A stretch of 64,000 bases of DNA from Sphingomonadaceae bacterium (GCA_029268145.1 JAJUHA010000010.1:2055-66054), one strand, 5' to 3'. Counted from the first letter of the stretch, positions 30,023 through 49,172 are shown. A program made the numbers and translations. Notes: generated from the letters alone by a model not told the origin.

Positions 30023-31195
30023 CTACATGCGCCCGCCGAAGGTGATCTCCACGCGCCGGTTCTGCGGCTCGCGGATATTGTCCATGGTCTCGACGAGAAG
30101 ACGCTCCTCGCCGAAGGCCTGGGTCGTCATCTGGCTTTCCGGAATGCCCTTGCCGGCCATGTAGGCCTTTACGGCATCCGCCCGACGCTGGGACAGGCCC
30201 ATGTTGTAGGACGCCGAACCCGAGGTGTCGGTGTGGCCCGCAAGCACGACCGAGGACTGGCCGGTCTGCATGTAGGCTTCCGCCGCCCGATCGAGGATGG
30301 CAGCCGCTTCCGGCGTGATGTCGTACCGGTCCCAGTCGAAGAAGACCAGGAACGGCCCGGGCGTCACCGCCGGGGGCGGCGGCGGGGGCGGAGGCGGCGG
30401 GGGCGGCGGGGGCGGCGGCGGGGGCGGCGGGGGCGGCGGCGGCTCGAACAGGTTGAAGGTGATCCCGGCGAGCAGGCTGTGGCTGCGGAACTTGCCCGCG
30501 AGATCGAGCCCGTTGGCGGTCTGCAGATCGACCGAATTGACGTTGAAGTAGCGATACTTCAGCCCGAGGTCGACCTTGTCGCTCAGCGCATAGCGGATGC
30601 CCGCGAGGCCCTGCCAGGCAAAGCCGGTGTCGCTGTCGTCGGCGAACGCGGTCCCGAACTTGGCCAGCTGCCAGATATGGGCCTGGGTGCGGGCGATGCC
30701 GGCACCGCCGCCGACGAAGGCGCCGAAGCGGCTTTCGTCGTTCCCGCCGAAATCGAGCAGGAAGTTCATCATGAACGAGAGGACGCGGGCGTTGCCGTCG
30801 GCGCTGTCATACGCCCCGGCGACGGGGGCACCCGTCACGCCGCAGCCCGGACCTCGCCCGGCGAGACCGCAACCCCCGCCGGGAATCGCGGGGATCGCGC
30901 CATTCACCGTGATGGCGTCGAGGTTGGCGTCCTTGTAGGCCACTTCGAACTCGGCACGAAGACCGCCGAAGTCATAGCCCATGACACCGCCGACGTCGTA
31001 GCCGACCTCATACTTGTTGCGCAGCGCATTCTCCGTCGTCCGCGGAGTCGCGCCGGTCGTGGTCAGATCGAAGCTCTCGGCCTGGGCGATCATGCCACCG
31101 CCCTCGAGACCAATATACCAGGACTTGTCCCGAGCCTGCGCAGCACCCGCCAGCGCAGTCGACGCGAGCGCCACGCCAATGGCGAACCTCTTCAT
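30023..31195 (-). CDS. OmpA family outer-membrane protein (beta-barrel, poly-Pro hinge, OmpA_C peptidoglycan-binding domain)
   Basis: 390 aa from ATG 31195 (MKRFAIGVALASTALAGAAQA). The barrel has alternating aromatic strands and ends in LFE, followed by a run of about 24 Pro. The C-terminal domain has OmpA_C-like segments GHTDTSGSASYN, LSQRRADAV and NRRVEI. Confidence 0.9.
   Translation of the reverse strand: MKRFAIGVALASTALAGAAQARDKSWYIGLEGGGMIAQAESFDLTTTGATPRTTENALRNKYEVGYDVGGVMGYDFGGLRAEFEVAYKDANLDAITVNGAIPAIPGGGCGLAGRGPGCGVTGAPVAGAYDSADGNARVLSFMMNFLLDFGGNDESRFGAFVGGGAGIARTQAHIWQLAKFGTAFADDSDTGFAWQGLAGIRYALSDKVDLGLKYRYFNVNSVDLQTANGLDLAGKFRSHSLLAGITFNLFEPPPPPPPPPPPPPPPPPPPPPPPPAVTPGPFLVFFDWDRYDITPEAAAILDRAAEAYMQTGQSSVVLAGHTDTSGSASYNMGLSQRRADAVKAYMAGKGIPESQMTTQAFGEERLLVETMDNIREPQNRRVEITFGGRM
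30371..30442 (-). repeat. about 72-nt homopolymeric proline-codon tract (CCN)n inside ompA
   Basis: The plus strand reads (GGN)n, cgggggcggcggcggggg... It encodes the uninterrupted poly-Pro hinge. Confidence 0.9.
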
Positions 31196-31324
31196 GTTGA
31201 TCCCCTTCCGACGCACCTGTCGAACGCAGTGCGACGCCATTTAGCCGACGGGAGTCGACAATGGCAAGCGCGAACAGGGGACAAGCTGTGACACCCGGGC
31301 AACAGGGACAAGTAGTTGTCGAGC

Positions 31325-39484: not shown

Positions 39485-39820
39485 TCAGGCGCCGAACTCC
39501 TCGGCGACGACCGAAAGCCGGTCCGGAAGCTGCGGATCCCGGTCGATCCCGGTGACCCGCAGGTCGAGCCCACGCCAGCTCAGGCGCATCCCCAGCGCCA
39601 CCTCGATCCCCGCGCGCATCAGCACCCGCCACCGCCGCGCCGTCACGCGCGTGTCGGCCACCACGGCCGACATGTTGAGCGTGTCGACGGGGCGCATCTC
39701 GGCCCAGTGCTCGCCTACGGTCCGCCAGATCTCGTGCGAGCCGCCGGCGCCATCGGGCGCATGCACCCGCTCCTCCACACGCACCCGCTGCTTCAGCCGC
39801 CCGGCAATTTCCCCGCTCAT
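39485..39820 (-). CDS. GTA g7-like head-tail adaptor / head closure protein
   Basis: 111 aa; LKQRVRVEERV...WAEMRPV... is typical of the phage head-closure (SPP1 gp16-like) family. Confidence 0.75.
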   Translation of the reverse strand: MSGEIAGRLKQRVRVEERVHAPDGAGGSHEIWRTVGEHWAEMRPVDTLNMSAVVADTRVTARRWRVLMRAGIEVALGMRLSWRGLDLRVTGIDRDPQLPDRLSVVAEEFGA

Positions 39821-39838: not shown

Positions 39839-40372
39839 TCAGTTGAGGCGCAGCCGGCGCCAGGGCGCCAGCAGCTGACGCACCGCCCCGGGCAGCCCCG
39901 CATCCTCGGCGGCGTCGCGGTGGGCGTGCAGATGTCCGGCCGCGCGCATCACCGCCAGCCGCAGCTCCTCGGGAAGCCCGTTCCAGTCCGCCGCCATGCC
40001 GGCGCGGTAGGTGACGCGCACTTCGCCCTCCACGCCGCGCAGCAGCTGGATCTCGGCCGCGCCGTCGCGCCGCTGCACCAGCCGCCAGTCGGCCTCGGCC
40101 AGCGGCGCCGGCTCCCCGCCCGGCGGCGTCAGGGTCACCGCGCTCACGGCCGCCACCGGCCCGGCCGTCAGCCGCAGCGTCTCGCCCGGGTCGGCGAACC
40201 GCTCGGTTGCGGTCCGCTCGAGGAGAAGCCGGCCCAGCCAGGTCTCGACCTGGCTCGCCGCGGCGCGGATGAGCCCGGCAAGAAGCGCATCCTCGGCGTC
40301 GGTCTCGATCCGAAGATAGGTCCGCAGTTCCACGATCGGCACCGGCAGGACCGCCGTCTCCAGCGTCAGCAT
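39839..40372 (-). CDS. GTA g6-like head-tail connector (phage gp6-like)
   Basis: 177 aa from ATG 40372 (MLTLETAVLPVPIVELRTYLRIETDAEDALLAGLIRAA...). This is only the C-terminal part of track ORF 39839-43162. The start overlaps the upstream stop (TGATG). Confidence 0.8.
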   Translation of the reverse strand: MLTLETAVLPVPIVELRTYLRIETDAEDALLAGLIRAAASQVETWLGRLLLERTATERFADPGETLRLTAGPVAAVSAVTLTPPGGEPAPLAEADWRLVQRRDGAAEIQLLRGVEGEVRVTYRAGMAADWNGLPEELRLAVMRAAGHLHAHRDAAEDAGLPGAVRQLLAPWRRLRLN

Positions 40373-40647
40373 CAGCGTTGCTCCACCCGGAAGACGAGCG
40401 AACGCTCGTCGATCTGGCCATCGGAAAGGGTGATCCGGTTGCGGACGGCATAGACGCGCCCCGCCGTCCCGCCGGACAGCCAGACGACCGTCTCGGCCCC
40501 GTCGATCGCCGATGTCTCGATGGCCGGGGCGCCCGCGCCCTCCGGCTCGACCGACCAGCTGCTGGCCACCAGCACGAGCCCGCCGGCCAGCCGCTCGGAC
40601 CAGTCGAAGCGATAGTCCAGCCGGGCGTCCGGATCCTTCAGGAACAT
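40372..40647 (-). CDS. small phage-like protein (possible fibre/tail adaptor-like), inserted module gene 3
   Basis: 91 aa from ATG 40647, preceded by GGGAGAG (the track starts at GTG 40662). MFLKDPDARLDYRFDWS...VWLSGGTAGRVYAVRNRITLSDG...ERSL. Confidence 0.6.
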   Translation of the reverse strand: MFLKDPDARLDYRFDWSERLAGGLVLVASSWSVEPEGAGAPAIETSAIDGAETVVWLSGGTAGRVYAVRNRITLSDGQIDERSLVFRVEQR

Positions 40648-40683
40648 CTCGGTCTCTCCCACTTCGAAAGGCGCCGGCAGCGG

Positions 40684-41052
40684 TCAGACCGGGTCGCCGA
40701 TCTCGACGCTCCAGCTCGCGATGCTGACGGTCCCGCCGGGCACCAGCGCCTGGTCCGGGCAGGTCGTGACATAGAGGAGCGCGGAGTTCGCCGCCGACAG
40801 CAGCGCGACGTGCGAGGCGGTGCCGGCCGCCAGAACCGCAAGCCCGCTCTTTGCGGCAACCGCCACCTTCCGGCCCGAGACGTCGCCGGGCCCGATGGAG
40901 AAGTCCGCCGGCGCGACCGTCGCCTCGGCCAGCCGTCCGGCCATCGCCTCGGCATAGGTCGCCGGCTGGGCGGCCAGCGCCACAATGCGGTCGGCCGATG
41001 CCACCACGGCAAGCGCGGCATCGAGAACGGTCGGGGAAACCCACTTGGCCAT
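40684..41052 (-). CDS. hypothetical protein, inserted module gene 2
   Basis: 122 aa; ATG 41052 is preceded by GGAGAGGA. No family recognised. Confidence 0.6.
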   Translation of the reverse strand: MAKWVSPTVLDAALAVVASADRIVALAAQPATYAEAMAGRLAEATVAPADFSIGPGDVSGRKVAVAAKSGLAVLAAGTASHVALLSAANSALLYVTTCPDQALVPGGTVSIASWSVEIGDPV

Positions 41053-41073
41053 GATGTCCTCTCCATGCTTGGG

Positions 41074-41094
41074 CCGGCGCCGCAGGGGCGCCGG
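41074..41094 (-). terminator. GC hairpin CCGGCGCC-gcagg-GGCGCCGG immediately after the 957-aa gene
   Basis: 8-bp perfect stem read from the sequence. No U-tract. Confidence 0.35.
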
Positions 41095-41109
41095 GTCGGG
41101 CGCGGCGTC

Positions 41110-43983
41110 TCAGTCCAGCGGCGGCCGCGCCCGGCGCTCCTCCGCCGGCACGCGGCGGGTCCGGGGAGCTGCCCCGGTCGGGCTCCCGCCGGGCGTGAAC
41201 CCCAGGGCGGCGGCAAGGCCGCGCACGGCCTGCCGCGCGGCATCCGCCACCACCGAGAGCAGCAGCCCCACGCCGGCGGCGCCTGCACCATGGGCATGGC
41301 GGGCCCCCGCCGGGTCGAGCATGGCCGCCGGCGGCGCAACCGGCTCGCCCTCGAGCGCGCCTGCCGCCCAGCTCGCGCCGGTCCTCAGGTTGCCGGCCAG
41401 GTCGGCGTCGATCTGGGCCGTGGTCGCGCGATCGAGCAGCGGGCTCCCCGCCATGGGCCGATAGTTGCCGAAGCCGGCACCGCCGTCCGCCACTGCGGCA
41501 GGCGCAGTGAAGCCGGGCCAGGCGATGCCCTCTGGCGTCGGAGTGCCGAGGTTCGGGTAGGGCGAGACGATGGACCTCAGACCCCAGTTCTCCGGCACGC
41601 AGCCGTTGAGCGAGCCGATGTAGGTCCGCCAGCCCTCGACATTGCCCTCGTTGAGGTGGCCGAAGTAGATCTGCCAGCCCTGCACCTGGTGGCCGCGATA
41701 GCCCCGGGTCGAGGCCGGTTCGCCCATCGCGGCCCGCGCCGTCGAAGTGTTCGAATCGAACATGGCCTCGTGCTTCGAGACCAGCTTGTCGAAATAGTTG
41801 TTGGCCACCCGGCAGTGCGCGTAGCTGTTGAACCGCGTGAAGCTGCCCGCCTGGTCGATCGGGTTCGGCTGGTTGTAGCAGTGGTTCGCCCGGTCGCCGA
41901 CGATGGTGTTGTGCTCGATGATGAGGCCGCGCACGTCGAGCTCGGGGTTGTTGATCTCGCCAATGGCATAGGCCGGAGCCGAGCCGCCGCCCGACTTCTC
42001 CAGGATGTTCCCGATGACATTCTGCCGAACGATCTTCAGCCGCCCGTCTGCCGCCGCCGTGTAGGTCACGGGGAAGAAGGCCCAGCCGGATACGGCATGC
42101 GTCCCCCGGCAGTCGTTGAACCACCAGTGGATGTCGTGGCGGCTCTCCTCGGTCGAGCCCGCAGGGATCGCGGGGTTGCCAAGCGGAAGCAGGGTCGTCC
42201 CTGCGCCCGTCTTGACGCAGTTGACCACCGTCGGGCTCGCGAAGCCCTTGCGGCTCCGCACCGACCGCAGCAGCAGGGCGGCGCCGGATGCGCTGTGCCA
42301 CCCGGTCGAGACGAGATCCTCCTCGATGTTGGTCGCGAAGATCCGCATCGTGCTGGCCGCCGGCGGTGACGAGCCGAACCCGGAAAGCGGGCTCCCGGGG
42401 TTGTCGTCCTCGATGCGGACCCCCTGGTCGAACCAGAGGATCCCGGAGCTCCCGGCGACCGGGAAGGCGACGGCGCGCATCCGGAAGCGGATTCCCGACA
42501 TCCGCACGCGCCACGCGCCGCCGAAACTGTGCGAGCCCGAGGCCGCGCCGACGAGATGGGTGCGGTCGATGCCCTCGCCCCGCACGTTGAGATAGGTTTC
42601 GGTCGAGGTCGCCCCCGAAAGGACGGAGAGCGTGCTCCAGGCATGCGCCACGGGCGTCGCCCCGCCCAGCAGGAAGATCTCGAACCCGTCGTGCGCGCTG
42701 GTCTTGGTCGCGGTGAAGCCATTGGCATTGTCGAGCCCGCGCGCCAGCCGGGTCAGCATCGCGCCGGCCACGGTCAGGTTGGCGCAGCGGTCGGCAACCG
42801 GCACCGCCAGCGCCCTGGCGCGCGCCTCCTCGGGGGTGTTGCCAAGGCCCACCACCTGCTCGGCGACGTTCCGCGACGGGGCGAAGCTGTTGTCGGTCCG
42901 CCCGCCCGCCGGGTCCACCACCACGCAGGCGTAGCGGTAATAGGTCGAGGGCGCATGCCCGAGCGGGTTGGTGCCACCGCCCGGGTTCGCCTGCGTCGTG
43001 TAGCCGTAGCGCGCCCCCGTCCGGTCGAGCGCCAGCATGAGCGGCTGCTCGGCCTCGATGCGGACCGACTGCTGCCCGGCATTGGCGCCCGGGTGCAGCA
43101 GCGCGGGCGAGGCCGTGGCCGGGTCGTTCGCGCTGCTGGTGTGGCGCGGCGCCCCGAACCACGGATAGACAGTCGCGTGCAGCGCGATGAGCCCGTCGGT
43201 CAGATAGGTCCCCGGCGCGCCCTCCACCTCGAAGCTGACGCTGCCCGTCCAGCAGCGCACGCTGTCGCCGTAGCGGGTCGAGGTGCCGATGGAGAGCCAG
43301 GATGCCACCGAGCGATTGGTGCCGTCGGTCGCGATGATGCGGATGCCCGCCACGCCCGAGGCGCCCTCGGGAAGCACATGGGAAGCCAGCATGTCCACCG
43401 TGGTGCTGTTCGCAGGCGCGCCCGGCGTGCCGCGGATGGCCTCGTAGGGCACGGTGATCCAGCGGAACGACGGCACTTCCAGCGCCACGGCCGAACTGTT
43501 GGTCGCGCTCACCACCTGGTCGGCGGCGGCGTCGGGCCGCCAGCCCGCCCTGAACAGCACGGTGACCGTCTCGCCCGGCGCCACCGGCTTGTGTAGCATC
43601 AGGCGGATGCTGCGCTGGCCGCCGCCCTCGTCCACTTCGCCGAGCGGGCGGTTGAGCGGCCGGAAGGTCGGCGCATCAGCAAAGGGGCCGGGCTGGAGCG
43701 AGGTCGGCTGGCCCGGCGCCCAGTCCGGGTAGCGGTCGGGGCGCACCTCGTGCGCCACCACCTCACGCGAGCGGGAAGCCCCGACAGCCTGCGCGCCCGA
43801 GCGGCTGAAGCCCGGGCCCGACACCGTCGCCACCACCCGCGCGCCCGCCTCGGTCTGGGTCTCCGGGCCGCCGGCACCGGCGAACAGGGCGAAGTCGGCC
43901 CGCACCGAGGGCGCGGCAGCAGCGTAGGTGACCCTGAGCGTCCAGCCGTCCGCCTCCACCACCGCTGCTGAGACGACCGTCAT
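41110..43983 (-). CDS. 957-aa right-handed parallel beta-helix (spike/depolymerase-like) protein, inserted module gene 1
   Basis: ATG 43983 starts a long ORF on the cluster strand. Beta-helix-like rungs (IIEHNTIVGDRANHCYN, CRVANNYFD). The family-typical C-terminal motif YRPMAGSPLLDRATTAQIDADLAGNLR...AAGALE is followed by an Ala/Gly-rich tail. Confidence 0.7.
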   Translation of the reverse strand: MTVVSAAVVEADGWTLRVTYAAAAPSVRADFALFAGAGGPETQTEAGARVVATVSGPGFSRSGAQAVGASRSREVVAHEVRPDRYPDWAPGQPTSLQPGPFADAPTFRPLNRPLGEVDEGGGQRSIRLMLHKPVAPGETVTVLFRAGWRPDAAADQVVSATNSSAVALEVPSFRWITVPYEAIRGTPGAPANSTTVDMLASHVLPEGASGVAGIRIIATDGTNRSVASWLSIGTSTRYGDSVRCWTGSVSFEVEGAPGTYLTDGLIALHATVYPWFGAPRHTSSANDPATASPALLHPGANAGQQSVRIEAEQPLMLALDRTGARYGYTTQANPGGGTNPLGHAPSTYYRYACVVVDPAGGRTDNSFAPSRNVAEQVVGLGNTPEEARARALAVPVADRCANLTVAGAMLTRLARGLDNANGFTATKTSAHDGFEIFLLGGATPVAHAWSTLSVLSGATSTETYLNVRGEGIDRTHLVGAASGSHSFGGAWRVRMSGIRFRMRAVAFPVAGSSGILWFDQGVRIEDDNPGSPLSGFGSSPPAASTMRIFATNIEEDLVSTGWHSASGAALLLRSVRSRKGFASPTVVNCVKTGAGTTLLPLGNPAIPAGSTEESRHDIHWWFNDCRGTHAVSGWAFFPVTYTAAADGRLKIVRQNVIGNILEKSGGGSAPAYAIGEINNPELDVRGLIIEHNTIVGDRANHCYNQPNPIDQAGSFTRFNSYAHCRVANNYFDKLVSKHEAMFDSNTSTARAAMGEPASTRGYRGHQVQGWQIYFGHLNEGNVEGWRTYIGSLNGCVPENWGLRSIVSPYPNLGTPTPEGIAWPGFTAPAAVADGGAGFGNYRPMAGSPLLDRATTAQIDADLAGNLRTGASWAAGALEGEPVAPPAAMLDPAGARHAHGAGAAGVGLLLSVVADAARQAVRGLAAALGFTPGGSPTGAAPRTRRVPAEERRARPPLD

Positions 43984-44008: not shown

Positions 44009-44035
44009 GGGGGCCACCGCGGCGCGGTGGCCCCC
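44009..44035 (-). terminator. 27-nt near-perfect palindrome (13-bp arms) just downstream of the capsid gene
   Basis: GGGGGCCACCGCG-g-CGCGGTGGCCCCC read at 44009-44035. Lies between the capsid stop (44062) and the next start (43983). No U-tract. Confidence 0.45.
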
Positions 44036-44061: not shown

Positions 44062-45234
44062 TCAGCTTGCCGAGAAGCGCATCAGCTTGATCGCCTCGCT
44101 GTTCACCAGCGCCCCGCCCACGCGCCGCGTCGCGTAGAAGTGGACGAACGGCTTGTTCGAGAAGGGGTCGCGCAGCACTGCGGTCTCGGTCCGCTCGGCG
44201 ATCGTGTAGGCCGAGCCGAACTGGCCGAAGGCGATCGCCAGCGCGTTGGCGGCAATGTCGGGCATCGCGTCGGCCTCAATCACCGGGTAGCCGAGCAGCG
44301 TCGCCGGCTGGTCGGCGGCAAGCGCCGGCTGCCAGATGAACTGGCCGGCCGAGTCCTTGAACTTGCGGATGACAGACAGCGTGTTGCTGTTCATCACCCA
44401 CACCGCGCCCTGGCGATAGGGGGTGCGCAGCGCATGGACGAGGTCGATCAGCCGGTCGGCGGGGTTCGCCGCCGGGAAGGCGCCCGCCGCCCCCGAGGGC
44501 AGATACTGCACCGTCCCGAACGGCCGGGCCTGGTCGGCGGTGGTCGCGACCGGATAGGTCAGGAAGCCCTTGGGCTGGTCGGTCCCGCTCCCGGTCACGA
44601 AGGCGATGCTCTCGGCCCGGGCGAAGTCGAGCGCGATCTCGTTGGCCAGCCAGGTCTCGATGTCGAACATCGCATCGTCGAGCATCGCCTGGGTCGCGGC
44701 CGGGTTGGCATAGAGTTCGCCCATCGGGATCGCGACTTCCTGGAAGGTCGGAGTCCCCGTCTCCGGCCGCCCCGCCGCCTCGCTCACCCAGCCGCTGGCG
44801 AAGCCGCCCGTCGAAACCAGACGGCGATAGCTGCTGCTCCCCACCTTCACCACATTGGCAACCGTCCGGATGGGGGAGATCGACCGCAGGGTCGATTCGA
44901 TCAGCTGGTCGAGCTCGCGCGGCACGGCGACGCCGCCGTCGCCGGGCACCGTGCCCTGGAAGCGCTTCAGCTCGAAGCCGCCCTCGATCCCCTTGCGCAG
45001 ATACAGGTCGGCGAAGGCCGCGCGCTCCCCGTCGCGGGCGGCTGCCGCGCCGGCAAGCGCCGGGCGGGCCCGCTCCACCGCCTGGCGCCGCAGGGCCGCC
45101 AGCTCGGACTTGATCGCCTCGACCGAGGCCCGCATCGTCGCCAGCTCGGCCGGGTCGGTCTCGCTCGTCACATAGGCAGGCGCGCTCGCCATGTCCGCCG
45201 GCGCAACCGCGTCGGCCTTGGTCTCGTAGGTCAT
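44062..45234 (-). CDS. GTA g5-like major capsid protein (HK97 fold)
   Basis: 390 aa from ATG 45234 (MTYETKADA...). N-terminal coiled delta-like region, then VPRELDQLIESTLRSISPIR, FQEVAIPMGELYA and PYRQGAVWVMN, all typical of HK97-family capsids. Confidence 0.9.
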   Translation of the reverse strand: MTYETKADAVAPADMASAPAYVTSETDPAELATMRASVEAIKSELAALRRQAVERARPALAGAAAARDGERAAFADLYLRKGIEGGFELKRFQGTVPGDGGVAVPRELDQLIESTLRSISPIRTVANVVKVGSSSYRRLVSTGGFASGWVSEAAGRPETGTPTFQEVAIPMGELYANPAATQAMLDDAMFDIETWLANEIALDFARAESIAFVTGSGTDQPKGFLTYPVATTADQARPFGTVQYLPSGAAGAFPAANPADRLIDLVHALRTPYRQGAVWVMNSNTLSVIRKFKDSAGQFIWQPALAADQPATLLGYPVIEADAMPDIAANALAIAFGQFGSAYTIAERTETAVLRDPFSNKPFVHFYATRRVGGALVNSEAIKLMRFSAS

Positions 45235-45289: not shown

Positions 45290-45694
45290 TCAGGGCAGGA
45301 TGGCGGTGACACGCGCGTGCGCGTGCATCGGCAGGGTCACCACCGAACATTCGAGAAGCTCGAGCTTCAGGAGCTCGCGCCCGCCGCCCGGAACCGGGCG
45401 GGCCTGCTTCACCCGGTAGCCGAACGAGAGCCCGTCCACCGCGCCGGCGCGCAGAAGCGCCAGCGCATCGCGGCCGTCGCGGCAATCCGGGCTGATCCGC
45501 GCCTCCATCCGGAGGCCCGCGGCATCCTCGACCAGGCTCAGCACCCGGCCGATCGGCCGCTCCACGTCATGCTGCCACAGGAGGGGCACGTCGGCCCGGC
45601 TGCCGGCGAAGGCGCCGCGGCGCACCAGGTCGCCCGACCGGTCGGGCGTGTCGAACCGGCTCACGTAGCCGCGCACCAGCACGCCGTCGCTCAT
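45290..45694 (-). CDS. GTA g4-like prohead protease (HK97/S78 family)
   Basis: 134 aa from ATG 45694, which overlaps the portal stop (ATGA). GYVSRFDTPDRSGDLVRRGAF...WQHD...GLSFGY...ECSVVTLP. Confidence 0.8.
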   Translation of the reverse strand: MSDGVLVRGYVSRFDTPDRSGDLVRRGAFAGSRADVPLLWQHDVERPIGRVLSLVEDAAGLRMEARISPDCRDGRDALALLRAGAVDGLSFGYRVKQARPVPGGGRELLKLELLECSVVTLPMHAHARVTAILP

Positions 45695-46824
45695 GCCGCC
45701 TCTCCGCCTGCCACGGCGCCCGCCCGCGGGCCCCAGCCGAGCAGCTCGCGCTTCTCGTCCACCGTCAGGAAGTCGGCCGCCGCCACGTGCCGCCACAGCG
45801 CCTCCCGGTCCGACCACAGCGCCGGGATGGCATCGAGGTCGGGCTCGATCCGCACCCCCGGCCACCAGCGGCCGAGATGGCGGGAGAAGCCCTCGGTGAT
45901 CCGGCCGAGCAGCGGCAGGACGGTCAGCCGCCACAGCGCGACATTGGCCTGGGCATAGTTGGCGTAGGTCGCGTCGCCCGGAAGCCCGAGCAGCATGGGC
46001 GGGACGCCGAACGCCAGCGCCACTTCCCGCGCCGCGGCCTCGCGGGCGCGGCCGAAGTCGAGCTCGGCCGGCGTCAGCGCCAGCGACTGCCACCTGAGCC
46101 CGCCCTCGAGCAGCATGGGCCGGCCGGCATTGACCGCGCCCTGGAAGGCGCTCTCCACCTCCTCGCGCAGCCGCTCGAACTGCTCGGCCGAAAGCGGCGC
46201 CCCGTCCTTCGTCTCGTGCACCAGCGCGCCCGAGGGCCGCGCCGCATTGGCGATGAGCGATCGGTTCCACCGCGCCGCCGCGTTGAGCAGCGCCACGGCG
46301 TCGGCGGCCGCGCACAGGCAGCCCTGGCCGAGATGGTCGTCGAGCGGGTTGACCAGCTTCAGGTGCAGCAGCGGCGGCCGCTCGCCATCCCACTCGGCGG
46401 GGAAGCGCTGGGTGCGGGTTCCGGCCCGGTGCAGGTAGGCGCGGGGCCAGCCGTCCGCGTCGAGCTCGATCTGGACCCGCTCGGGGCGGAGCGCCCAGGC
46501 CTCGGCGGGCTGGCCGAGATGGTCAAGCCCGAGGCCCACATAGGCATTGCCGTGGAGCAGCAGATGGGTGGCGATCGTCTCCCTGAGGCCGGGCGTCAGC
46601 AGCGCGGCGGCCGGATGCTCGCGCCCCGCCACCAGGAGCGGGGCGTGGCCCAGGCTCTCCGCCACCAGCCGCACGGCGCGCTGGGCGATCGCGTTGCGGC
46701 CATAGGCCTCGTCCACCCGCGCCTCGTAGGAGGCCGGCGGCTCGGTCGCGCCGCTGCGCAGCCCGGCGGCGGCCGGGCGCGGCAGGCCCATCGCCTTCCT
46801 GGCCATGAAGGGCCAGCGCATCAC
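45691..46824 (-). CDS. GTA g3-like portal protein (HK97 family)
   Basis: About 377 aa; GTG 46824 or ATG 46821. YGRNAIAQRAVRLVAES, LLHGNAYV and the later REVALAFGVPPMLLG are typical portal motifs. Confidence 0.9.
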   Translation of the reverse strand: MMRWPFMARKAMGLPRPAAAGLRSGATEPPASYEARVDEAYGRNAIAQRAVRLVAESLGHAPLLVAGREHPAAALLTPGLRETIATHLLLHGNAYVGLGLDHLGQPAEAWALRPERVQIELDADGWPRAYLHRAGTRTQRFPAEWDGERPPLLHLKLVNPLDDHLGQGCLCAAADAVALLNAAARWNRSLIANAARPSGALVHETKDGAPLSAEQFERLREEVESAFQGAVNAGRPMLLEGGLRWQSLALTPAELDFGRAREAAAREVALAFGVPPMLLGLPGDATYANYAQANVALWRLTVLPLLGRITEGFSRHLGRWWPGVRIEPDLDAIPALWSDREALWRHVAAADFLTVDEKRELLGWGPRAGAVAGGEAA

Positions 46825-47127: not shown

Positions 47128-48534
47128 TCAGATGGCGCGCAGCGCCGGGGCGGCCTGTTCGGGCGCCAGCATCAGCTCGGTCAGCGCCCACACCAGCGCA
47201 TCGGCCCGGTCGGGCGAGCTGCCGGGGCCGCGATAGGCCCCGCCGGTGATGAGCCCGCACAGCTGGTCCTCGAGCTCGGGGAAGGGCCGGGCATGGGCCA
47301 CCAGCCCGCGGGCATAGAGGGTGGCCACAGGTTCGGCGCGCGCCACCTTGCCGACGCTTGCGCGCACCGGCTTCAGCGGCAGCCTGCGGTGGCCTCCGGC
47401 CTCGAGCACGCTCTCGACCATCCGGCCGCCCTGGTTCACTTCCACGACGATGCAGTCGGCACGGTGCTGGGCATGGGCGTCGACCACCGCCTTCGCCCAG
47501 TCGTCGGGCGTCGCGTCGGGCACGCTCCGGTCCGAGAGCACATAGGCCCTGCCGCGCGTGTCGAGCCCGGCGACGATGATGCCGCAGGTGCCCGGGCCGG
47601 CCGGCGGGTCGACTCCCACCACCACCCGCGCCAGCTCGCCCTCGGGCGCCATCCGGCAGCGCTCGAGCGCGTCCCGGCTCCACAGCGCGCCCTCGATCCG
47701 CTCGAGCAGCTCGCCGGCAAGCTCCTGCCGGCCAAGCGCCGTGCCGCCATAGCCCGCCTCCATGTCGGCGAGGTAGGAGGCGGGCAGGTTGATCCGGTTG
47801 TCGAAGGTCGAGCCGCGGGTGAGCACGACTCCCTCCATCCGGGTCAGGCTCCGCAGGAAGGCGGTCGGGCGCGGCGTCGTCGTCACCACCACCCGCGGCC
47901 GCACGCCCAGCCTCAGGCACATCCGCAGATTGTCCCAGGCCTCGCGCGGCCGGCTCCAGGCGGCGATCTCGTCGCACCAGGCGGCATGGAACTGCGGCCC
48001 CCGCAGCGCGTCGGCTTCGCCGGCCGAGAACAGCGTCGCCATCGCGCCATTGGGCCAGTGCAGCTCGCGCTTGGAGCGCAGGAACAGCGGCCGGTTGCCC
48101 TCGACCGCCGTGCCGAGGATCCCGGATTCGCCGCGCACCATCACCGCCTCGGCGTCATGGAGGGTCGTCCCCACCAGCGCAATCCGGCAGCCGGGCGTGG
48201 TCAGCGCCTGCCGGTTCACCCACTCGGCACCGGCGCGCGTCTTGCCGAAGCCGCGCCCGGCGAGGATGAGCCACACCGCCCAGTCGCCGGCGGGCGCCAG
48301 CTGTGCCGGGCGCGCCCGGAACCGCCAGTCGTTCAGAAGCCGCCACTGGTCCTCCAGCGGCACGTCGGCAAGGCACGCCGCGCGCGCCTCGCGCGGCAGG
48401 AGCGCCAGGCGCTCGATGAGCGAAAGCCCCGAGCGCGCGCCACCCGCCGCCACGTCCCCATCGCCCACAGGCCGTTCTCCGCCGCGACCCCGCCGGCTCC
48501 CCACCGGATCCGAAAAGGGCGCCGCCGCGGACAT
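47128..48534 (-). CDS. GTA g2-like terminase large subunit
   Basis: 468 aa from ATG 48534. Walker A LILAGRGFGKTRAG; nuclease-half motifs VGVDPP...IIVAG. The track ORF starts at TTG 48672, but that leader has poor GC3 and a W/R-rich sequence. Confidence 0.9.
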   Translation of the reverse strand: MSAAAPFSDPVGSRRGRGGERPVGDGDVAAGGARSGLSLIERLALLPREARAACLADVPLEDQWRLLNDWRFRARPAQLAPAGDWAVWLILAGRGFGKTRAGAEWVNRQALTTPGCRIALVGTTLHDAEAVMVRGESGILGTAVEGNRPLFLRSKRELHWPNGAMATLFSAGEADALRGPQFHAAWCDEIAAWSRPREAWDNLRMCLRLGVRPRVVVTTTPRPTAFLRSLTRMEGVVLTRGSTFDNRINLPASYLADMEAGYGGTALGRQELAGELLERIEGALWSRDALERCRMAPEGELARVVVGVDPPAGPGTCGIIVAGLDTRGRAYVLSDRSVPDATPDDWAKAVVDAHAQHRADCIVVEVNQGGRMVESVLEAGGHRRLPLKPVRASVGKVARAEPVATLYARGLVAHARPFPELEDQLCGLITGGAYRGPGSSPDRADALVWALTELMLAPEQAAPALRAI

Positions 48535-48668
48535 CGGCTGACATCCGCGGCGGCGACAGGAGCCCCGGCCGGTCCGGATTCCAGACGGGCCAGGGCGTTC
48601 GGGAGGGGAGGCGCTCCAGACCCAATTCCGGAGCGTGGCCGAATCTCTATACCATACCGTCACGCTTG

Positions 48669-49172
48669 TCAAGCATAGATTTGACCATTTTGGTTCTCAT
48701 AATGCGCCGCAAGCCGATCCAGCGCCAGCCCCAGCACCAGCTTGCCCGATCGCACCGGCCAGCCGAGGCCGCGTTCCGCCGCCTCCAGCCCCTCGCCGGC
48801 GCACACCACGCGCCACAGGATGTCGGACAGCCCGGGCCCCACGGCATCCATCGCGGCGTGAAACCGTGACCGCGCCGCCGCGCTCCCCAGGGCCTGGGCT
48901 TCGGCGCCCCGGCCGCAGCCGCGGTCGCGCGGCGCCGCCAGATCCCAGCGCATGGTCACCCGCGCCCCCAGCTGCGCGGCGTGGTGGTCCCGCCGCAGCC
49001 GCTCGCCCGCCGCGACCTGGCGCCCGTCCAGAAGCCTGCGCCGGAACAGCCAGTCGAGCGGCGATTCGTCGAGGTTCACATGCACCAGCTGCCGGTCCAC
49101 CGCGTCCGCCGGCGCCAGCCGACGCCTGCCGATGGTCCGATTCGGATACGCCTTCGGGTCGATCACCTGCAT
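48669..49172 (-). CDS. hypothetical protein at the g1 (small-terminase/regulator) position of the GTA cluster
   Basis: 167 aa; ATG 49172 is preceded by GAGAGGAG. The AGERLRRDHHAAQLGARVTMRWD motif and a C-terminal HTH-like segment (GWPVRSGKLVLGLALDRLAAHY) possibly indicate a DUF6456-type protein (from memory, unverified). Confidence 0.55.
   Translation of the reverse strand: MQVIDPKAYPNRTIGRRRLAPADAVDRQLVHVNLDESPLDWLFRRRLLDGRQVAAGERLRRDHHAAQLGARVTMRWDLAAPRDRGCGRGAEAQALGSAAARSRFHAAMDAVGPGLSDILWRVVCAGEGLEAAERGLGWPVRSGKLVLGLALDRLAAHYENQNGQIYA

Follow-up and report, generated by a model that had tools for sequence, protein, structure and literature searches.

Three genes between the capsid gene (g5) and the connector gene (g6) of a gene transfer agent (GTA) cluster were analyzed in a stretch of 64,000 nucleotides from a Sphingomonadaceae bacterium (GCA_029268145.1 JAJUHA010000010.1:2055-66054). 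This whole stretch is referred to as the window, and coordinates are positions within it, the cluster and its three-gene module both lying on the minus strand (Table 1). The genes encode a large protein of 957 amino acids (aa), a protein of 122 aa (p122) and a 91-aa protein of the Gp77 family. They are real genes of the head operon and are inherited together with the cluster, and on balance we lean towards reading their products as a collar with an exchangeable surface-binding appendage at the neck of the particle.

A sequence-only reading of this DNA had proposed that three additional open reading frames (ORFs) on the same strand, each preceded by a Shine-Dalgarno sequence, separate g5 from g6 in a cluster of the type known from the Rhodobacter capsulatus GTA (RcGTA). 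The three ORFs, the flanking g5 and g6 and the RcGTA type of the cluster were all confirmed, and the motifs quoted from the proteins were present in them. The last stop codon of the module had been said to overlap the start of g6 and so to wire the module into the head operon; it does so by one shared A, the 91-aa gene ending with TGA at 40374-40372 and g6 beginning with ATG at 40372-40370. A GTG at 40662, given as the start of the 91-aa gene by a mechanical ORF call, was set aside in favor of the ATG in Table 1 on the basis of the Shine-Dalgarno sequence and agreement with relatives. The GC content at third codon positions of the three genes was 0.88-0.91. The ratio of nonsynonymous to synonymous substitution (dN/dS) was calculated pairwise between the window and three relatives, with the same three pairs for all genes. 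The 957-aa gene had values of 0.29-0.47, p122 of 0.18-0.24 and the 91-aa gene of 0.16-0.33; the capsid gene (0.13-0.19) and g6 (0.21-0.51) served for comparison. Together with the Shine-Dalgarno sequences, these values indicate that the three genes are real, functional and under purifying selection.

The 91-aa protein was found to be a full-length member of Pfam family PF23148 Gp77 (103.1 bits against a cut-off of 27; E 1.2e-29; profile positions 1-84 of 84), whose name is Podophage GP4 fiber-tail adaptor protein gp77. It also matched phrog_4137 and chain D of a PDB structure (8jou_D; phmmer E 5.6e-7, residues 6-88 against 9-90). The earlier association of the small protein with phage fibre or tail adaptors, made from its motif MFLKDPDARLDYRFDWS, was thereby borne out. 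The Ralstonia podophage GP4 reportedly carries gp77 as a fibre-tail adaptor together with a 'rope' and Fiber-1 (structure 8JOU). In one article (PMC12609058), the GP4 adaptor and the collar protein of phage Bas63 are both described as immunoglobulin (Ig)-like, and the GP4 protein is described as a dodecameric collar at the adaptor/head-completion interface that carries its fibres via the 'rope'.

Evidence for the placement of the large protein came from a survey in which 160 loci were fetched from genomes and viral contigs, mostly of Sphingosinicellaceae and unclassified Sphingomonadales (loci carry L numbers below). In three contigs, a protein of the large family was fused in frame to a complete gp6-type adaptor (L090 3285-6542, L091 4024-8877 and L092 4598-9451), the fusion proteins being 1085 and 1617 aa long and L091 and L092 originating from two samples. 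These contigs are HK97/ClpP-type siphophage-like elements with the order capsid, p122 homologue (36 % identity), fusion gene and head-completion gene, and neither a separate adaptor gene nor a Gp77 gene was found on them. The adaptor part of the fusions was 30-31 % identical to g6 of the window (E 1e-9 and 4e-17). Since the two fusion proteins were only 45 % identical to each other, the fusion is a conserved arrangement and not an assembly error. An Ala-rich stretch that corresponds to the tail of the 957-aa protein connects the large-protein part with the adaptor domain in both L090 and L091. This arrangement locates the C-terminal end of the large protein to the neck, on the adaptor ring, and suggests that Gp77 achieves non-covalently in the GTA what the fusion achieves covalently. 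No earlier description seems to exist of an adaptor that bears an appendage of about 900-1400 aa at the neck.

The sequence-only reading had pictured a head fibre, a location that did not hold up: the Gp77 collar at the adaptor/head-completion interface of GP4 and Bas63 and the adaptor fusions both point to the neck and not to the capsid shell. A spike at the capsid vertices, in which the large protein would stand on the shell with Gp77 and p122 as its base, is therefore considered unlikely. The module genes do lie directly after the capsid gene, p122 directly follows the capsid gene in L070, L079, L090 and L091, and the RcGTA head spikes, which bind capsule, provide a precedent. Set against this, the Gp77 fold is that of a collar on tail or adaptor and not on the capsid, the large protein is fused to a gp6-type adaptor in three contigs, and in L112 and L126 the order capsid, g6, Gp77, p122 puts Gp77 and p122 among the head-tail joining genes.

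The distribution of the module was followed with a p122 profile. A scan of one genome per species gave 107 matches, mainly in Thermaurantiacus, Polymorphobacter, Sandarakinorhabdus, Sandaracinobacter, Glacieibacterium, Sphingosinicella and metagenome-assembled genomes of Sphingomonadales, and IMG/VR added 230 further matches. Where p122, Gp77 and g6 were all detected, they were adjacent in 129 of 133 loci (68 of 70 from genomes, 61 of 63 from viral contigs). The module had been presented as an unusual GTA accessory; it is instead the rule in the GTA clusters of Sphingosinicellaceae and of many Sphingomonadales, a normal part of this clade's clusters with one variable slot, and as such standard in the clade, although no paper describing its function was found.

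The variable slot lies between the capsid stop and the p122 start, which were separated by a median of 2.85 kb. It was filled by a relative of the 957-aa protein in 73 loci, usually only 23-40 % identical, the range seen outside the closest clade, by a gene of similar size without detectable similarity in 10 loci, and by a shorter gene or none in 17 loci. In Sphingosinicella the order was capsid, p122, a 783-aa gene, Gp77 and g6. Unrelated slot genes of 340-920 aa were present in some species (L067 3612-5966; L070 6386-8737; L077, L061 and L088), several of them retaining the C-terminal peptide described below. In L067 the slot protein includes a SASA carbohydrate-esterase domain (E 2e-11), of a type that also occurs in phage tailspikes. 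The slot after g5 would thus behave as an exchangeable cassette, and the appendage that it encodes probably sets which cell surfaces are bound.

Most slot proteins share a C-terminal motif, RTLRVxx[DE]xRT, with a median distance of 6 residues (range 3-13) to the C-terminus. Scored with a position weight matrix, it was present in 88 of 114 non-redundant slot-protein tails (77 %); the corresponding rate was 0-0.2 % for interior windows and 0.4-0.8 % for shuffled tails. Because one set of tails served for both training and scoring of the matrix, the exact fraction is optimistic, but the contrast is large. The motif also occurred in slot proteins without BLAST similarity to the 957-aa protein (L067, L053 and L070), and it was absent from the adaptor-fused proteins of L090 and L091/L092. 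We propose from these sequences that it is a docking peptide following a flexible tether.

With respect to the 957-aa protein itself, no family match was obtained in Pfam, PHROG or NCBIfam, and neither sequence nor profile search gave a significant match in the PDB. Close homologues numbered only 10 in a word-indexed search; among those from named organisms, the one of Thermaurantiacus tibetensis came nearest (58 % identity). A profile search of 1.84 billion representatives returned 305 clusters at E<=0.001, of which 99 reached E<=1e-30; a further search with a 40-sequence profile added no proteins. By these sequence comparisons the family is real and fast-evolving. An AlphaFold2 (AF2) model built from a 40-sequence alignment was of high confidence, with a mean predicted local distance difference test score (pLDDT) of 83.9 and a predicted template modelling score of 0.86. 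In this model tandem Ig-like beta-sandwich domains at the N-terminus, which are among the best-conserved parts of the family, are followed by an alpha/beta region (up to about residue 420), a region of repeated short strands and a capping region that ends in the motif quoted by the sequence-only reading. Within the strand repeats, polar residues are conserved among members that are about 25 % identical (R573, D617, R653, E662, E690, R698, N728 and K737), a pattern that hints at a binding or catalytic site.

The central and C-terminal part of this protein had earlier been taken for a right-handed parallel beta-helix. The AF2 strand pattern fits, and the modelled region is compatible with such a fold, the fold class being unconfirmed. 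Profiles gave no support: beta-helix Pfam models (Beta_helix, Pectate_lyase_3, NosD, DUF1565 and similar) gave no match at E<=10 in the window protein and nine relatives and none at E<=0.01 in the homologous region of 40 family members. Foldseek with the whole chain matched only the Ig-like N-terminus in the PDB, over ~300 columns (Fab, transglutaminase, SiiE and other Ig-like proteins), and no beta-helix-type protein was among the 50 best PDB matches listed. A viral library yielded an uncharacterised Caudovirales protein as its best match (E 3e-5), with pectate-lyase-superfamily, tailspike and endosialidase proteins reached only at E 0.05-0.1 and low probability in a search dominated by the Ig-like N-terminus. 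The Ala/Gly-rich tail of about 75 aa and the family-typical ending, also claimed earlier, are both present, and the tail is predicted to be disordered; the central beta-helix that was to precede them was not established. A capsule- or lipopolysaccharide (LPS)-type surface-glycan role, which had been suggested as well, is plausible, whether as binding or degradation; the alternative occupant of the slot in L067 carries the SASA carbohydrate-esterase domain.

The 122-aa protein is very conserved, with more than 250 homologues at 60-85 % identity, and in distant loci it was more conserved (64-68 % identity) than the capsid (56-60 %). Its homologues adjoin those of Gp77, of the large protein or of both in phage-like contigs. 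In the bona fide phage record Mae-JY22 (L089, PP438414.1), a p122-like (49 %) and a Gp77-like (44 %) gene sit side by side just ahead of a tailspike-like gene (phrog_2234), an arrangement that counts in favor of the collar-and-appendage reading. The tailspike-like protein itself gave no significant alignment with the large family in hhalign (probability 4.5 %). We propose that p122 is a highly conserved partner in the module with a structural or assembly role. Two other assignments were tried: a paralogy of p122 and Gp77 was dropped (hhalign probability of 1.6 % between the two families), and a capsid decoration protein, suggested by the place of p122 behind the capsid gene in some loci, was ranked low, since in Mae-JY22, L112, L126 and L170 p122 is found with Gp77 or fibre genes at a distance from the capsid gene. 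As a separate observation, Mae-JY22 is recorded as a 'Microcystis phage'. Its p122-like and Gp77-like proteins share 44-49 % identity with GTA proteins of Alphaproteobacteria, and its GC content of 66.9 % is far above that of Microcystis genomes, so that Microcystis looks doubtful as its host.

Taken together as a mechanism, the 91-aa protein would form an Ig-like ring around the junction where g6, the adaptor, meets g7, the stopper, in the manner of its relatives in GP4 and Bas63, with g6 as the platform for this collar. The 957-aa protein would be the appendage, consisting of Ig-like domains and a probable beta-helix body whose polar residues may bind or cut surface polysaccharide. It would be tethered by its disordered Ala-rich tail, with RTRRVPAEERR docking on collar or adaptor, and p122 would serve as a conserved structural or assembly partner. 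Swapping of the slot cassette would then change the cell surfaces to which particles stick.

Several observations weigh against this collar and appendage at the neck. The beta-helix was confirmed neither by Foldseek nor by any profile. For p122, no Pfam, PHROG, NCBIfam or PDB match was obtained by sequence or profile, no relation to the chains of the GP4 structure was detected, and a single-sequence AF2 model had a pLDDT of 42 and no recognisable fold. The C-terminal motif, besides having been counted with a matrix trained on the same tails, could in part be a retained recombination flank. In actinophages (mycobacteriophages and Gordonia phages) the Gp77-family genes sit in the tail-gene region and bear the annotation minor tail protein, so the Gp77 fold is not confined to the neck. 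One viral contig, L170, has its p122 homologue after a megatron-like tail gene, the sole context pointing to the tail tip. Both the presence of the three proteins in a particle and the production of particles by Sphingomonadales clusters of this type are predictions from the genes.

The actinophage genes and L170 are also what speaks for a fibre at the tail tip or baseplate, in which the large protein would be held at the distal tail by the Gp77-like protein and the genes would lie where they do by an accident of history. This too is improbable: the position upstream of g6 with its stop/start overlap is kept in about 130 loci, the fusions are made to the head-tail adaptor and not to a tail-tip protein, and the clusters of relatives have distal genes of their own (the TIM-barrel distal tail protein, the megatron-like protein and a DUF2793 gene). 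Least probable is a moron-like insert outside the particle, encoding a secreted or lysis-associated polysaccharide-active enzyme and two small accessory proteins. In its favor, the two larger proteins lack homology to any structural family, the conserved polar residues suggest an enzyme and an alternative slot occupant is an esterase. Against it, one of the three proteins belongs to a genuine family of virion adaptors, translation of the module is coupled to that of g6, homologues are fused to the adaptor, and the module is stable in the head operon across a family-level clade.

Building on the neck-collar reading, a wider proposal may be put forward tentatively: that GTAs of the Sphingosinicellaceae type carry a neck appendage with an exchangeable distal cassette, such as a beta-helix-like protein or an esterase, held on a constant Gp77/p122/g6 collar by the C-terminal peptide, that exchange of the cassette gene reprograms the recipient range, and that the N-terminal extension of the adaptor in the siphophage-like elements is an undescribed way of building a neck fibre.

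Among known systems, GP4 resembles the module in that the 91-aa protein is a full-length member of the gp77 family, is encoded next to a large fibre-like protein, and has in GP4 gp77 an Ig-like fibre collar as its counterpart. GP4 differs in being a podophage, whereas the present cluster is a siphovirus-like GTA, and attachment here seems to be through the C-terminus of the fibre. Neither the 957-aa protein nor p122 showed similarity to any PDB chain, the GP4 rope and Fiber-1 included, by phmmer or profiles, and no separate 'rope' homologue was identified. The neck appendages of Bacillus phage phi29, formed by gp12, have a beta-helix body, act enzymatically on a cell-wall polymer and are anchored on the collar below the head. 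They are the closest functional analogy to the arrangement proposed here, although phi29 is a podophage, the beta-helix of the 957-aa protein is unconfirmed and no sequence relation is expected. The head spikes and tail fibres of RcGTA are reportedly adhesins that bind surface polysaccharide and influence the recognition of recipients. In R. capsulatus these spikes and fibres are encoded outside the head-tail cluster and sit on the capsid vertices or the tail. Compared by description, they share with the module the role of accessory GTA adhesins and differ from it in that the module is encoded inside the cluster and its product is predicted at the neck. The collar-whisker complex of the myophage Bas63 is similar in having an Ig-like 12-fold collar at the adaptor/head-completion interface with appendages that may bind LPS (PMC12609058); its whiskers are small dimers on an N-terminal extension of the collar protein, whereas here a multidomain appendage of 957 aa is paired with a collar protein that has no extension, and T4 wac is a looser analogue than Bas63. 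Collar-borne fibres are thus already known in phages, while the place of this module in GTA clusters is functionally undescribed; a literature search found no description of the module, of its function or of a link to the GP4 collar.

The sequence-only reading had also described the 957-aa gene as bracketed by strong GC hairpins. Both hairpins exist, one directly 3' of the capsid stop and one 3' of the 957-aa gene, and neither folded better than shuffled sequence at 72 % GC (z -1.4 after g5 and z -1.1 after the 957-aa gene). All six relatives compared (L001, L003, L005, L006, L007 and L010) have a perfect GC hairpin of 11-14 bp immediately 3' of the capsid stop, with differing stem sequences. 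Because the position is kept while the stems differ, the hairpin after g5 is probably functional and probably a conserved RNA element, likely an mRNA 3' stabiliser or attenuator that sets the dosage of the capsid relative to the downstream genes; in the scheme above it would lower expression of the module relative to the capsid. In L006 a U-rich run follows the hairpin. A pattern scan for intrinsic terminators and sigma-70 promoters found none inside the module.

The surrounding cluster is a complete RcGTA-type head-tail cluster in gene set and order, as judged by Pfam, PHROG and NCBIfam profiles, in a window of 72 % GC. In addition to the genes in Table 1 it contains an S78 prohead protease, a tail completion protein, a tail tube, TAC chaperones, a short tape measure, a hub and an NlpC/P60 peptidase, the last as a weak match only. 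The capsid protein was 85-86 % identical to those of L001 and L003.

Table 1. Positions of the module, its landmarks and the neighboring cluster genes in the window.
Feature	Position	Strand	Remarks
Large protein gene, 957 aa	41110-43983	-	ATG start; AGGA Shine-Dalgarno
Tandem beta-sandwich (Ig-like) domains, residues 1-280	43144-43983	-	AF2 strands, pLDDT >90
About ten repeats of two or three short strands, residues 435-735	41779-42681	-	DSSP of AF2 model
Ala/Gly-rich tail, residues 884-957	41113-41334	-	Predicted disordered, pLDDT 30-44
RTRRVPAEERR, residues 941-951 of the 957-aa protein	41131-41163	-	Instance of the C-terminal motif
p122 gene, 122 aa	40684-41052	-	GGAGAGG Shine-Dalgarno
Gp77-family gene, 91 aa	40372-40647	-	ATG at 40647; GGGAGAG Shine-Dalgarno
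Perfect 12-bp GC hairpin	44009-44035	-	Directly 3' of capsid stop; no U-tract
8-bp GC hairpin	41074-41094	-	3' of 957-aa gene
g5, HK97-type major capsid protein, 390 aa	44062-45234	-	ATG at 45234; TIGR01554 E 7e-108; Pfam Phage_capsid E 5e-86; upstream border of module
g6, gp6-type head-tail adaptor/connector	39839-40372	-	TIGR02215 E 2e-28; phrog_442; downstream border of module
g7, head-completion (stopper) protein	39485-39820	-	PF05521 E 9e-12
DUF6456 gene (g1-like)	48669-49172	-	First gene of cluster
Large terminase (TerL)	47128-48672	-	
Portal	45691-46824	-	
Distal tail protein, 781 aa	35238-37583	-	NCTSP_N, TIM barrel and Rcc01695-type (DUF2460) domain
Megatron-like protein, 752 aa	31823-34081	-	278 bits against NCBIfam equivalog cut-off of 800
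OmpA-family porin-like gene	30023-31240	-	Borders cluster at its other end
XRE-type helix-turn-helix (HTH) gene, 187 aa	49300-49863	+	Divergent from g1-like gene

Host flanks were shared by the window, L001, L003 and L005 (cysI for sulfite reductase, DUF934, PAPS reductase, UPF0262, dcd, HTH and DUF6456), and between the window and these three loci the proteins were 42-89 % identical. The cluster has neither integrase nor replication genes and occupies a fixed chromosomal site with vertical inheritance. The large genes of the relatives lie at the same place in the cluster within the same chromosomal flanks, which fits a vertically inherited GTA locus. This type of locus, bordered on one side by an OmpA gene, has been described as an 'ancient prophage of Sphingomonadales' (Viswanathan et al. 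2017, PMC5381585) and was later reclassified as RcGTA-like (Kogay et al. 2019, PMC6821227). The likeness extends to the OmpA gene (the 'first ORF', corresponding to the porin-like gene of the window), vertical inheritance and a GC content above that of the host genome, and the portions of text available from PMC5381585 and PMC6821227 do not describe the genes between capsid and connector.

Other features of the cluster were recorded alongside these. In the 781-aa distal tail protein the DUF2460/Rcc01695 domain makes up the C-terminal third, and the first two thirds match the Pfam N-terminal domain of non-contractile tail sheath (E 2e-82) and a TIM barrel (E 3e-144). This tail-sheath/TIM-barrel/Rcc01695 fusion was present in every related locus looked at, with three separate gene calls in L008, and the protein is possibly a further glycan-active device, located at the tail tip. 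In the short megatron homologue, the match mainly covers the N-terminal ~200 residues and the Rcc01698_C domain. The XRE-type HTH gene keeps its position in L001, L003, L004 and L005 and may be a cluster-specific regulator. Clusters of the Polymorphobacter type (L006 3261-3584; L008 2591-2893) have an extra DUF6127 gene between portal and protease, and the window has no such gene.

To our knowledge, the determinants of GTA recipients are known in detail only for Rhodobacter capsulatus. The module described here is a candidate adhesion device that is encoded inside the cluster and has been kept over a family-level clade, with a large subunit that evolves fast and is sometimes replaced while the small subunits stay constant. 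If the reading as a neck collar with an exchangeable appendage is correct, it would extend the collar principle of GP4 and Bas63 to siphovirus-like particles and would give a provisional role to two uncharacterised families, the 122-aa proteins and the large proteins of about 900 aa. It would also offer a simple handle on recipient specificity in an order where GTA activity is so far predicted from genes.

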